This document shows positions 12,001-18,000 of a DNA stretch of 64,000 nucleotides, piece after piece. The position numbers were made by a program. The DNA is from Escherichia coli (GTDB lineage: Bacteria > Pseudomonadota > Gammaproteobacteria > Enterobacterales > Enterobacteriaceae): the NCBI RefSeq assembly GCF_003334785.1, contig NZ_QOWV01000005.1. One strand, written 5' to 3'. The stretch's first letter is position 1. The number at the start of each line of letters is the position of its first letter.

Positions 12001-15000
12001 CTAAAATTTTTCCATCGACAGTGGTTATGTCTGATACATAATCTAAAAGCTCTAATGCTTTTTGAGCAGCAAGTTCAAGTTCACTTTTTCCATGAAGTGC
12101 CAAAGACATATGGCATTCCGCTAGAAGGCAATAACATTCTGTTTTTAGCGTCTGTATATCACTTTTATTTTGTAATCTATCAAATATAGTCATGGCCCTG
12201 TAAATGCTTTCAGGGGTGAAGTCGTAAAGTTCTTTCTTTCCGGCTAACATTTCATCTGATAAATAATGATTCTTATATCCTTGGTCCTGCTTAGCTAATC
12301 TTACAGATCGTTCTGGTTTATGTACCGTTTGAAGGATATTATCTATAATAAATTGTGATGTATTATGTAGTTCATCAACAGGGAGATGATTACTGGCGAT
12401 GAGGAAAAGGTTTTTAGCGTCGATCAACTCAATGTATAAAGTGTTCACTGCATTATTCTGGTTTATTCTTCCTGTAACGAAATAATCTGGCTTGAATCTG
12501 CTCAAGAATGAATTTTGAGATATGTGATCATTACAAAAATTTGTCGCAGCTATCGGATAGGTATAGAGACCATCGATTTTTTTATTTGAAATGATTTGCA
12601 CTAATTCCTGATTAAGTATTAATGGATCCAGTGTATTCAATGAAGTAGTGAAAGGGAATATAGCTATGGAATAGTCTGAAGTATTATCTTCATTAATTTT
12701 AGTTTTGAAAACCTGCCCGCTGAAACGATAACCTTTCCGGTAGATTGTTTCTATGCAACGATCATAGCCAATTTTTTCAAAAATGCAGCGCAAAGAATAG
12801 ATACATCTTGTCAGGGACTCGTCACTAACAATAATATTTTTCCATACTGATTCGATGATCATATCTTTCAGTACAACATGACCAGCGGATTCAAGTAATA
12901 CTATTAATACACCTAACTCTTTCTGTGGAATATAAACTTGCTCATTTCCTTGAGTAAGAATTCCATCTTCCGTGAGCGTTAATCCCTCAAGAAAATGATA
13001 TGAGAATTTATTTTCTAAGTCCATTAGTTAACCTCTATGAAAAAATTGGTTTCTTGCATCCTGCTTAAGCAATAGAAATTATGGCTATTCATATTTATGT
13101 GTCATTAACGCTACAGGAAATTATATTTGACATATCTATGGTTGTGTTCACTAATTTATCTTAGGAATTCAGTGATGTAATCTGAAATAGCCTTATTCAA
13201 TTTTGATAAAGTAGATTGTTCTCTAACGCATTGAAAAATAATGATTTATAGTATGCTCTTAACTGTTTTAAGATGCTGATTTAAGAAAACATAAGAGGTG
13301 CTGGTTATAGTGGTTAACTGCACTATAACCAGCAAATTTAACCAAATGATTGTAATTCTTAGCCATTATCTTCTGAATTATCGTTTAAGAGTTCAATATA
13401 TGCCTGCGCTTTACTCTTAACACTATCATCCTCACAATTGTTAATAATGTGATAGAAACATTGCATTGCGTTATCGATATTTTTAGCCCCAATCTGACAT
13501 TGACCCATACGATAAATAACTGAATAGTCATCATACGGGAAGTAATTGTAACTTAGTTTGTAAAGGTCATATGCTTGTTGATATTTCTTTTTGGGCTGAC
13601 ATACTGATGCAAAATCTTTTAGATACTCATGATTTTCGAACGCATAAATGCACAAGAATTTATAATAAATTTCTGCGTCCGTTATATTACCCTTTTCATG
13701 GTAGTCGAATGCATATGCATATATTCTATCAAGGATATCAGGAGTTAAACCATGTAGTAATGCCAGATTTTCTCCTTTCGATAATGCGTGTTTTAGTTGA
13801 TTTGCCCATTCATCACTATTATTGAATATTTCAATTGTTTCTGTGCTCATAATATTCCTCTGTGATGTGTCTCGTGATGCCAAATTATTATTGATTGACT
13901 CATTGATATTTTTATATTTATCTTTTTTAAATTATGAGTTTTAAGCTTGCATTGCTTATGGTATATTTTTCATTATTGGTAAAAGTACTGTTCACTACAA
14001 ACTAATAACATCATTAGTTGTTTTACTAATATTCACCTTATTAGTTATCTTAATTACGACATTACATAAATGCCTTAATGTGTATGACCTGGATTCATAG
14101 TATCAATTGCCATTTTTTCAATGAAAATTAAAAAGGGGATTTTTGAGAAGGGTAGAATGTCGTTTGTTTTTTTCTTTATTATGTCTGGTGACGCGGGGGG
14201 ATAGAACGTCTGTGCATATAGTAGTGAATTTATTCAGGTCTACATTATTCTCTATTTTGGTCAGTTTTATGAGTTCATTTACAGCCATACTCATTAAATC
14301 ATCTGTTATCGAAAATTTATATATGCTCATAGCAGATAATATTGCTTGCTGAATTATCTCTTCAGAAATATCCGCTATCTTTATTGACAAATCATGTGTT
14401 AGATATTTTCCTCCAAGAGATTCTTGTTCAATATAATTTAAACCAGACCCCATTGTGATTTTAACTGGATTAACGGATTTCTCTTCATTTTTCTTATTTT
14501 TGTTCTCCTGATCAGGAACTAATGGTTGCAGTGGTAGGCTATTATTAATATTTCGTGGCTTCATTTTACATTTCTCTCATTTGATTAGAGCAAAATCCGA
14601 ATTCGCAGCTTCTGATAATGTCAAATATCACCTTATGGAGACGTTACGTAGAATGACTATATTTGTTATCGGCACATTAGGGGTATTAATTTTAGTATTG
14701 ATGGAAGGTGATTATTGAACAGTAACATCGAGTCACGGTAAAAATGTGAGGTATACAATGGACATTGAATTTTCGCAGATTCATGAAATGGTCTATATGC
14801 ATGATATTGTAAATTCGGACTCGAAAAAGAAACCAAGGATTCCGTTAAAAAAATTCCTTAATGCTGAGAATGTTCTCACGCAAACAACATCATGGACATT
14901 AAATTCAAGATATGTGAATGTTAATTCTGTCAATAAAGTCAACGTAAAGAGTAAAGTTAAAAACAGTTATATCTCACGATCTGTCAATGATGAGTTTAGT

Positions 15001-18000
15001 TTAACAGATGATGAAATCAATTCTTTTAAAGAAACGTTAGTCCTTTCCTCTATTGATTCACTGAGTAAACTGGTTCTTAATAATCCTCTTTCTGTATTGT
15101 TTACATCGACTGTACGAAGGAATAATAATCGAGCTAAGATGAATGTCGAGTTCGACTCATGGATTTGCACCAGATGTTGTTGATACATGATATTTTACAT
15201 TGCAAGGAGATGTCTAAAATGAAAGATGTTGATCAAATCTTTGATGCTTTAGACTGCCATATACTGCGAGAATATTTAATTTTATTGTTTTATGATTAAC
15301 GAGGTTCCATCTTTTTGTTATCTATTTTAGTTTACCTTGCACAATGCATTATTGCTCTGTTACCAATGCTCAAAATAAAAGCATGCTTACCTTGCTTTAG
15401 TATATTATAGCTTACACTTTTTTCTGGAAAGACATAAAAATCAGGAATAAGTTGTGCAAGTCTATCATCATCAACTTGATCCATAATCTCAAACTTATTA
15501 ACTTTCTTTGATGTTAAATGGGCTGTGTCATAGTTTTCAATCCATGTGTATTCAATATTTCGCCGTATTGATTTACTTTCTCTGTTACCTTGTTGCCAGG
15601 TTCCACTCAACGCAACAGTTCCTGTTTTATTTTTTTTGTTATACATAAAGTCGATGGTAAGATTTGCTCGTCCCTGGTCATTAAAAATTACCCAATTTGC
15701 AGTGCATGTTTCGTTATATATCATTTTTTCTGCAGTGTAAGAATAGACAGTGAAGAGAATAAACCCACTGATAAAAACTAAAATAAATAATAAGTTTTTT
15801 TTATAATCAATCACGATTAACCTCACGGTAAGACAGGGTTAAACAGTTTGCCACTTCATGTTGGTTATAGTTTTTATTGCATGCCATAACAATCATCCCC
15901 GGTGAGGATTTTGCAAGAGGGAAGTATAACCACGGATGTTTTTTACAGTTAATCCCCGAATCCAGTATCCGTGTTTTATATTTATCGAACTCTTTCAACC
16001 CATCAATTGTATCTTCTGTTACATTAAAATGGCAGCCATTAATTTCCGCAACAGTCTTGTAATCCTTGAAAAATGGCTTCGGTTGATTATTATTCCATAG
16101 CCAATATGCAGAATATGCGCCTATGACAAATGCGCTCAACATAATTAGATGACTTTTTATATGTTTGAGGATTTTGTTATTGAAATTCTTTGCGCCACCA
16201 ATGCTCTCTTTGTATCCCGCATTAACTTTTATGGCAGGTGGGGCATTGTGTGTATGTGCGTCTGTTGACGAGTTTATTACATGATTTTGTATGTTAATGT
16301 CATTATGGATCTTGAATCCTCTTCTCGGCACGGTTGCAATTAGCGAGTGGGTAGTATCACCAACAGCGCGAAATCCGCGTCTGATAATGGATATGTTCTG
16401 ATATAACGTGTTAGTAGGCACACGCATACCTTCTTCTTCCCAGACTCTGGTGAAAAAATCTTGTTGTGCAACCACATCAGGAAAAGCTTCAAGTAGAAGT
16501 GATAAACATCGACTGGCTGGCGTTGTCAGAACGACGTTAAGATCGGCGTTATGTACCGATATTAATTTTCGGTGCTCAGGCCAGAACTCGATATTATCGT
16601 TAATAATCCAGTACATACGTCAATAAACACTAAATCAATCGAAATGGAGATCACATAGTTTGCTAAGTATATTGGTATTTACGGCATAAATATATATTAA
16701 TTTTATATTTATCATGATGATTGAAATGAGGCTTTAATGTTGCAACGTAAAACTTTACGTAAATTAACATGGTTAACATTTATGCCACTATTGTTTGTAA
16801 ATTCATATTTCGTAATGCTTCTGAATTTTTCGTGTGATGGTTTTAAATACTATGGTGTTTACTCTTGAGGGGACGGCCTATTTATAAAATACGGACATTT
16901 CAATAAATGCCCGTATAAACAGAGTATGATTCTGGCTGGTCGTTGAGTATCAATGTTGGACCGAATGTGAACGAATAAATAATTCGTTTATTTTACCACC
17001 CATTCTCTTTTCGATTCGTTGCTTGTACGCGTAGATGCTACGGATATCCATATCCAGAACTTCAGCAATCTGATATGGATTATAACCAGAAACCATATAC
17101 CCCATTATGGTGAATTCCATCTGAGTTAATGTGTTACCTCTGGTAAATGATAAATAACGACCAATAAATAGTTGTCTGATCTTTTCATTGGCAACATCAA
17201 GACCATCATCATTATATATGACAGCAGATATTGCTGAGTTGTGTTTTCGCCAGTAATTAGCTAACGATTGCATATTGCGGTCGCTGACTAAAACAATCCC
17301 CATGTCAGTACTTGCAAGATAGTCAATCCAGTCTTTTTCAAGGAATAGACGTAAAAAACTTACTGAAAAATCGACAAAAATATATCCGCTTAATCTCGCA
17401 TTGTGGTTTTTTGTTAAGATACCTTCTACCACACCACGATTAAAATATGAACTTTCTTCGGGCCACATACAAAAACACGAGTTTGCGCAATACTGCAAAC
17501 GCGGTGACTCTTCTGGCATTATTTGGCAATGCATTGAGCAACTATTGCATGTAAGACTTTTATAACGACTACAAAGCCCCATGTTAAGAACCTCCCTATC
17601 CGTATATAATTGCATAATTTCATTGGTTATTGATGATGTCAATACACCATGATTTTGTAATTTTGCCGGGAAAAATTGCGATTAATCTGTATTTGCTATA
17701 ATTCTGAGTAAGGCATTTAAAAATGCATTTCTCGTTATCAAATATGATTATGTTTCACTGATTTAATCTTGCATGGTTGAGAGCGGTCCAGATAACTATC
17801 TCATGGTATAAGAATATCTATATCGCAAATTGTTTTTGAATGACCAGAAGATATCTTGCGAATCTAAGTTATGCATCTTAAATAGTCTTATTTAAGATGT
17901 TCAGATCTCTTTGTGTGTTTAACTAACTGATAATACTAGGATATGACGAGAGAAGTGATAGGGTGGAATAATAACAAATGAATATTATGAAAAATGGAAT

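Follow-up and report, generated by a model that had tools for sequence, protein, structure and literature searches.

Yqe genes at the edge of the ETT2 island: YqeI and YqeJ as a probable co-component transmembrane regulator of the VtrA/VtrC-ToxR/ToxS kind

Does yqeJ, a small membrane protein gene of Escherichia coli, encode a ToxS-like partner for the ToxR-like regulator YqeI, and do the neighbouring genes yqeH and yqeK belong with the pair? We addressed this in a 64,000-nucleotide stretch of E. coli contig NZ_QOWV01000005.1 (assembly GCF_003334785.1; hereafter the window), for which a preliminary description had placed the four genes together at an island edge and proposed YqeJ as the partner candidate. 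ToxRS, VtrAC and other co-component regulators are of interest as the means by which several gut pathogens convert host bile signals into virulence gene expression. The candidate pairing is supported by topology, fold, co-occurrence and co-variation, and we conclude that yqeI-yqeJ is very probably a two-protein co-component transmembrane transcription regulator of the VtrA/VtrC-ToxR/ToxS kind. The assignment is correct and not new, having been published in 2022. In a search for VtrA/VtrC-like cassettes by Kinch, Cong, Jaishankar and Orth (PNAS 2022, PMC9214523), the entry for E. coli K-12, ECK2845 YqeI with the lipocalin ECK2846 YqeJ, is a VtrA/VtrC-ToxR/ToxS-type co-component and the sole such cassette that they found in that strain. 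A 2023 survey of transmembrane regulators also names YqeJ as the partner of YqeI (PMC10269533), and a 2026 ToxS preprint counts 'YqeIJ' among co-component regulators (PMC13042144). What we add is modest: confirmation by independent structural and co-occurrence analysis, a conserved 8-nucleotide overlap and a recurrent LuxR-type neighbour. With near-complete copies in some two thirds of the complete E. coli genomes, the ligand and regulon of YqeI/YqeJ form a real gap; the preliminary finding, which restates the published assignment, does not bring that gap closer to test.

Both proteins have the architecture of co-component regulators (Table 1). YqeI combines an N-terminal OmpR/PhoB-type winged helix-turn-helix (HTH) with a single membrane helix and a small periplasmic alpha/beta domain, in agreement with its earlier description as a ToxR-like membrane-spanning regulator, and its best PDB sequence match is the ToxR DNA-binding domain (1.6e-7). 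YqeJ, encoded adjacent and downstream, comprises a short tail at the N-terminus (M-I-D-Y-K-K), the one strongly hydrophobic helix that had been noticed before, and a predicted periplasmic lipocalin-like barrel. The concern that YqeJ might be cytoplasmic is answered by a predicted N-in/C-out topology, with KK directly before the helix, and by its cysteines. There are just two, and across a family of 128 clusters, mostly of 150-165 residues, recovered by a profile search of 1.8 billion representatives, C37 is invariant and C158 near-invariant; this conserved pair fits an oxidising periplasm for the C-terminal domain. The membrane helix and the YqeJ cysteine pair were kept in all homologues examined, and the four periplasmic cysteines of YqeI in most of them.

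Structure prediction, proposed in the preliminary description as a check, gave a clear result. The AlphaFold2 (AF2) model of YqeJ, from a 97-sequence alignment, consists of the membrane helix and an eight-strand barrel at a predicted local distance difference test score of 94.2. Of all solved structures, ToxS and VtrC come nearest to this barrel by fold comparison: ToxS is the top Foldseek match (7.6e-5), V. cholerae ToxS and VtrC are among the leading matches, and identity in the structural alignments is 7-12%. Searches of YqeJ against local Pfam-A, NCBIfam and PDB sequences returned nothing significant, while its precomputed, newer Pfam family is PF27292 (YqeJ_C). YqeJ is a fold-level relative of ToxS and not a member of the ToxS family by sequence.

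If the two proteins work together, their genes should travel and diverge together, and both were observed. A locus scan using one genome per species and a 12-sequence YqeJ subset as query, with its reach confined to Enterobacteriaceae, returned 18 loci in 9 genera (Escherichia, Citrobacter, Salmonella diarizonae, Kosakonia, Klebsiella oxytoca, Trabulsiella, Phytobacter, Leclercia and Yokenella). A yqeI-type sequence lies immediately upstream on the same strand at all 18, intact in 17 and frameshifted in Citrobacter amalonaticus AUH_CA_2023_1 (L011 3153-3999). Distant metagenomic relatives of YqeJ (~20-25% identity) likewise have an upstream gene in six cases of six; four of these genes carry Trans_reg_C and two are truncated at the contig end, without domain data. 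The mean pairwise distances of the two periplasmic domains are 0.63 and 0.59 versus 0.43 for the DNA-binding domain, and those of the YqeI and YqeJ periplasmic domains correlate with r=0.92 (partial r=0.67 when controlling for the DNA-binding domain), a mirror-tree correlation that is weak evidence because adjacent genes share history anyway.

The overlap between the two reading frames, already remarked on in the preliminary description, spans 8 nucleotides with the RefSeq GTG start (GTGATTGA, 15807-15814) and 20 with the longest open reading frame (ORF). The GAGG preceding yqeJ lies within the yqeI coding sequence, and the yqeJ start overlaps the yqeI stop codon region. Of 16 intact homologous pairs in other genomes, spread across genera, 12 share an identical 8-nucleotide overlap, usually with a GGAG/GGGG-like motif upstream, a linkage which together with that at the scanned loci is as obligate as co-component pairs are expected to show; the other four pairs have overlaps of 14, 8 or 11, 4, and 8 or 11 nucleotides. 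The start that gives the 8-nucleotide overlap yields a 160-residue YqeJ product in 14 of the 16. Since YqeI/YqeJ was placed among the non-overlapping exceptions by Kinch et al. 2022 (PMC9214523), the conserved overlap is a small correction to that work. In the Phytobacter locus (L012, around 3980) no ATG, GTG or TTG start was seen for the yqeJ homologue near the junction.

One could still argue that yqeJ is an unrelated small membrane protein gene which sits next to yqeI through coincidence, and the lack of any match to YqeJ in local Pfam-A, NCBIfam and PDB sequence searches would suit this. Against a pairing present at every locus examined, in the nine genera as in the distant metagenomic members, and against the conserved overlap, the ToxS/VtrC-like fold and the reported formation of a complex, we regard coincidence as effectively refuted.

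The cassettes themselves vary in their setting. In Escherichia sp. E1V33 and E. whittamii (L002 and L003) identity to E. coli falls sharply along the locus, from 98% for YqeG and 94-96% for YqeH to 71% for YqeI and YqeJ and 62% for YgeH; yqeK, ygeF and ygeG are missing and ygeH comes next after yqeJ, ~600 nucleotides on. From this drop, the sensor segment seems either to have evolved fast or to have been replaced. In several genomes paralogous cassettes, two or more in number, also lie near each other (L023 1-2442; L026 1-3498; L010 with L017 on the same Trabulsiella contig; L016 with L019, again on the same contig). They are convergent in L023 and divergent in L026, where one is of the FidL_like and one of the YqeJ_C family, beside a phage-type integrase. 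Such clustering fits mobile, duplicating cassettes.

The co-folding of the YqeI periplasmic domain with YqeJ was run on a fused chain in which YqeJ(28-160) was joined through a linker of 30 Gly/Ser residues to YqeI(172-269); besides the query, the alignment contained 23 paired and 24 unpaired rows. The AF2 model reached a predicted template modelling score (pTM) of 0.77 with both domains confident and the linker as the sole disordered part, as judged from pTM alone. We infer that such a value would require confident relative placement of the two domains, an indirect indication of docking. Kinch et al. (PMC9214523) state that the co-expressed periplasmic domains of YqeI and YqeJ form dimeric complexes.

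To the architecture, the ToxS/VtrC-like fold and the obligate pairing described above, and to the complex formation reported in the literature, a mechanism can be added that is largely drawn by analogy with VtrC and ToxS. In this reading YqeI is anchored in the inner membrane with its winged HTH in the cytoplasm and its small alpha/beta domain in the periplasm. YqeJ, translated from the overlapping frame, is anchored by its one helix with the lipocalin-like barrel in the periplasm, where the barrel may bind the periplasmic domain of YqeI and may also bind a hydrophobic ligand from the host, for example a bile salt. Such binding would stabilise or oligomerise YqeI, which would then activate target promoters while still membrane-bound. 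It is conceivable, if rather unlikely, that YqeJ is instead a stabiliser alone, shielding the YqeI periplasmic domain from regulated proteolysis and sensing no ligand. Partner proteins of this class act by blocking proteolysis of the regulator or by promoting dimers (PMC10269533), the literature search yielded no ligand for YqeJ, and the four conserved cysteines suggest that the periplasmic domain of YqeI is sensitive to redox state or folding and could need protecting. The lipocalin-like barrel, however, is a ligand-binding fold in VtrC and ToxS (PMC9214523; PMC13042144), and protection and sensing are compatible with each other.

Among known systems, MarT/FidL of Salmonella pathogenicity island 3 (SPI-3) and GrvA/FidL of E. 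coli O157 are built alike, a ToxR-like transmembrane regulator coming first and a lipocalin-like partner with a disulfide after it. Kinch et al. (PMC9214523) treat YqeI/YqeJ as orthologous to MarT/FidL, sequence-related by HHsearch, and note the conserved disulfide. One member of the YqeJ family matches both Pfam YqeJ_C and FidL_like, and an autotransporter gene follows one metagenomic relative, recalling the activation of the MisL autotransporter by MarT/FidL. YqeI/YqeJ differs from both in lying at the ETT2 edge and not in SPI-3 or an O-island, and in that YqeJ has its own Pfam family; the targets may differ as well. To VtrA/VtrC, the bile-salt receptor of Vibrio parahaemolyticus type III secretion system 2, similarity is undetectable by sequence (7% identity); YqeI and YqeJ have conserved cysteines, and Kinch et al. 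(PMC9214523) report conserved disulfides that are absent from VtrA. Bile-salt binding and control of the secretion system are features of VtrA/VtrC that would extend to YqeI/YqeJ by analogy. With respect to Vibrio ToxR/ToxS, YqeJ lacks a sequence-level ToxS match (10-12% identity in structural alignments), the regulons differ, and toxR and toxS do not overlap (PMC9214523), unlike yqeI and yqeJ.

The locus sits at the edge of the AT-rich island of the second type III secretion system of E. coli (ETT2). Between positions 14500 and 17900 the sequence is 100% identical to that of K-12 strain MC4100, with the window running reversed relative to the K-12 map. Of 5426 complete E. coli genomes, 4132 contain a match to it; at least 80% of its length is present in 3588 of the 5426, with identity of at least 95% in nearly all of these near-complete copies. 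GC content is 30-39% from position 1 to ~18,000 and ~50-55% from ~20 kb onward, the step at ~18,000 falling between yqeH and yqeG. At 32-40% GC the four yqe genes are AT-rich and border core-like DNA, just as first described. Their ORFs were confirmed on the strands given for them and are uninterrupted, and RefSeq annotates all four as intact on the identical K-12 sequence. The span proposed for them (14746-17642) does contain the genes, its outer ends being longest-ORF starts; the likely starts are slightly inside, at 14758 and 17582.

Retention of this kind bears on whether the cassette could be a silent remnant of a decaying island, with ORFs that are intact but unexpressed or without targets here. 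The AT-rich, island-like DNA, the joint loss of yqeI, yqeJ and yqeK in some E. coli strains and the frameshifted yqeI homologue of a Citrobacter would accord with this. We consider it improbable given the many near-complete and nearly identical copies, the K-12 ORFs that are intact although apparatus genes are deleted there, and the phenotypes of knockouts in avian pathogenic E. coli (APEC). Strains without yqeI or yqeH have fewer flagella and lower motility, adhesion or biofilm, and virulence, the yqeI knockout losing flagella, motility, adhesion and virulence.

Several points weigh against yqeI-yqeJ as a working co-component regulator. By phmmer against the PDB, neither ToxS nor VtrC resembles YqeJ in sequence, so that homology of YqeJ to them rests on fold and gene context. 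The docking evidence from the fused model is indirect, consisting of a pTM alone. A literature search yielded for YqeI/YqeJ neither a ligand nor a direct DNA target, nor a phenotype of yqeJ, and the APEC knockout phenotypes could be indirect. Finally, with sctU split in this strain, the pair may regulate little here.

Upstream in the window are ygeF, ygeG (SicA-like chaperone) and ygeH (HilA family), and the ETT2 apparatus genes sctQ, sctR, sctT, eprH, eprK and orgB (1158-9804), together with sctU. This is not the K-12 deletion form, and the strain therefore holds more of ETT2 than K-12. The sctU (epaS) gene is split into two overlapping ORFs (3808-4539 and 4536-4928, + strand), which align to positions 1-235 and 245-366 of the 367-position EscU/YscU model; with this apparent frameshift the ETT2 apparatus of this strain is probably defective. 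Beyond yqeH the gene order continues with yqeG (permease) and yqeF (thiolase), and a strong hairpin directly after the yqeG stop is likely a terminator parting yqeG from yqeH. A promoter scan of the region gave 17 sites versus 16.9 in shuffles, no excess, and we therefore claim operon structure solely for the yqeI/yqeJ overlap and the one hairpin after yqeG. No tRNA gene was found within positions 1-22000, and an Rfam scan of 13000-19500 gave zero matches.

Table 1. Positions of features in the window and, where a locus (L) is named, in related loci.
Feature	Position	Strand	Description
yqeI	15807-16616	-	269 residues; transmembrane transcription regulator
YqeI winged HTH, OmpR/ToxR-type	16311-16535	-	residues 28-102; Pfam Trans_reg_C 4.1e-9
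YqeI membrane helix	16092-16154	-	residues ~155-175; single hydrophobic helix
YqeI periplasmic domain	15810-16091	-	residues 176-269; ~95 residues, small alpha/beta, 4 Cys
yqeJ	15332-15814	-	160 residues; co-component partner
YqeJ N-terminal membrane helix	15737-15796	-	residues 7-26; strongly hydrophobic
YqeJ periplasmic barrel	15335-15724	-	residues 31-160; 8-strand lipocalin-like (predicted), Cys37/Cys158
Coupling junction	15807-15824	-	GAGG 15821-15824, 6-nucleotide spacer, yqeJ GTG start 15812-15814
yqeK	14758-15183	+	141-residue ORF, convergent with yqeJ; ATG 14758, GAGG 7 nucleotides upstream
Hypothetical ORF	15219-15299	+	26 residues; RefSeq; between yqeK and yqeJ
yqeH	16950-17582	-	210-residue soluble regulator; ATG 17582, GGAGG 8 nucleotides upstream; RefSeq
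YqeH GerE/LuxR HTH	~16998-17132	-	residues 151-195; Pfam GerE 6.6e-5
Promoter-like site	17614-17642	-	TTGACA-17-AATTAT with TG extension, upstream of yqeH; consensus match alone
Hairpin and T-run	17997-18031	-	16-bp stem
LuxR-HTH ORF	L004 4483-5034	-	~180 residues
LuxR-HTH ORF	L005 4489-5040	-	~180 residues
LuxR-HTH ORF	L006 4531-5070	-	~180 residues
LuxR-HTH ORF	L008 4481-5032	-	~180 residues
LuxR-HTH ORF	L009 4499-5074	-	~180 residues
LuxR-HTH ORF	L011 4524-5075	-	~180 residues
LuxR-HTH ORF	L012 4482-5036	-	~180 residues
EcpR_N (YqeH-like) gene	L021 3614-4216	+	directly downstream of cassette in metagenomic relative
ORF after cassette	L010 4589-5977	+	~460 residues
ORF after cassette	L013 4588-5976	+	~460 residues
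ORF after cassette	L015 4477-5874	+	~460 residues
ORF after cassette	L019 4609-5997	+	~460 residues

The grouping of yqeK with the other island edge genes stands insofar as its ORF is intact; a link to the yqeI/yqeJ pair was not detectable. YqeK gave no Pfam or NCBIfam match and no recognisable domain, all its named homologues are from E. coli with none outside that species, and yqeK is absent from 26 of 26 related loci, among them those of Escherichia sp. E1V33 and E. whittamii, in which ygeH directly follows yqeJ. On these three grounds membership of the yqeI/yqeJ module is rejected: YqeK is an E. coli-restricted orphan outside the conserved module, and in the mechanism proposed here it would be unrelated to the pair. 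GTG 14746 was rejected as its start, being the longest-ORF call, whereas GAGG supports ATG 14758. One paper (PMC9014576) calls an activating regulator of the locus of enterocyte effacement 'YqeK/EtrB'; as a 2024 ETT2 review gives EtrB as YgeK, we take this label to be a slip for YgeK. The YqeK of the window is without a DNA-binding domain.

YqeH had been described as a LuxR-type regulator, which holds for its C-terminal GerE HTH but not for the body of the protein, which is EcpR-like. The NCBIfam EcpR model matches it at 2.3e-20 over profile positions 3-179 of 180, at 73 bits against an equivalog cut-off of 300. By Pfam it has neither a receiver (NarL/FixJ type) nor an autoinducer-binding domain, and its N-terminal part aligns with EcpR. 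YqeH thus resembles EcpR/MatA along the full EcpR profile, but differs in its score far below the cut-off, in an extra Cys-rich N-terminus and in having no adjoining ecp pilus operon. Residues 1-38 (17469-17582, - strand) contain 7 Cys, including C12-x-x-C15, and the first part of this segment precedes the start of the EcpR-like alignment (~residue 31). The segment could serve as an extension that responds to metal or redox state. TTG 17642 was rejected as the yqeH start, since it coincides with the -35 hexamer of the promoter-like site and GGAGG supports ATG 17582. In the proposed mechanism yqeH would stand apart from the pair, as a soluble regulator of LuxR-HTH/EcpR-like type that has a putative promoter to itself.

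Neighbours with a LuxR-type HTH recur beside such cassettes. In Escherichia this is YqeH, upstream of the pair, and in one metagenomic relative (L021) an EcpR_N protein is encoded directly downstream. Seven further loci, four of them from Citrobacter and one each from S. diarizonae, K. oxytoca and Phytobacter, have a conserved LuxR-HTH ORF of ~180 residues, which is convergent and lies ~40-60 nucleotides downstream of the yqeJ homologue. These ~180-residue proteins and YqeH were rejected as one family, as hhalign pairs the C-terminal HTH alone (probability 73%, E 3e-5) and the N-terminal domains differ. We consider it doubtful that the YqeI/YqeJ pair and an adjacent small soluble LuxR-HTH regulator form a three-part module, in which the pair would control or act through its neighbour, and in E. 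coli also through the HilA-like ygeH. Such a module would resemble the cascade that runs from VtrA/VtrC to VtrB and would couple ETT2 and motility genes to a lipid signal in the periplasm, with the 8-nucleotide overlap enforcing 1:1 coupled synthesis. It is unlikely that the LuxR-HTH neighbour is more than loosely associated with the cassettes. In Trabulsiella and Yokenella an ORF of ~460 residues stands right after the yqeI/yqeJ-like pair; it is a GGDEF diguanylate cyclase in L010 and L015, and the ORFs of L013 and L019 are alike in size and position only.

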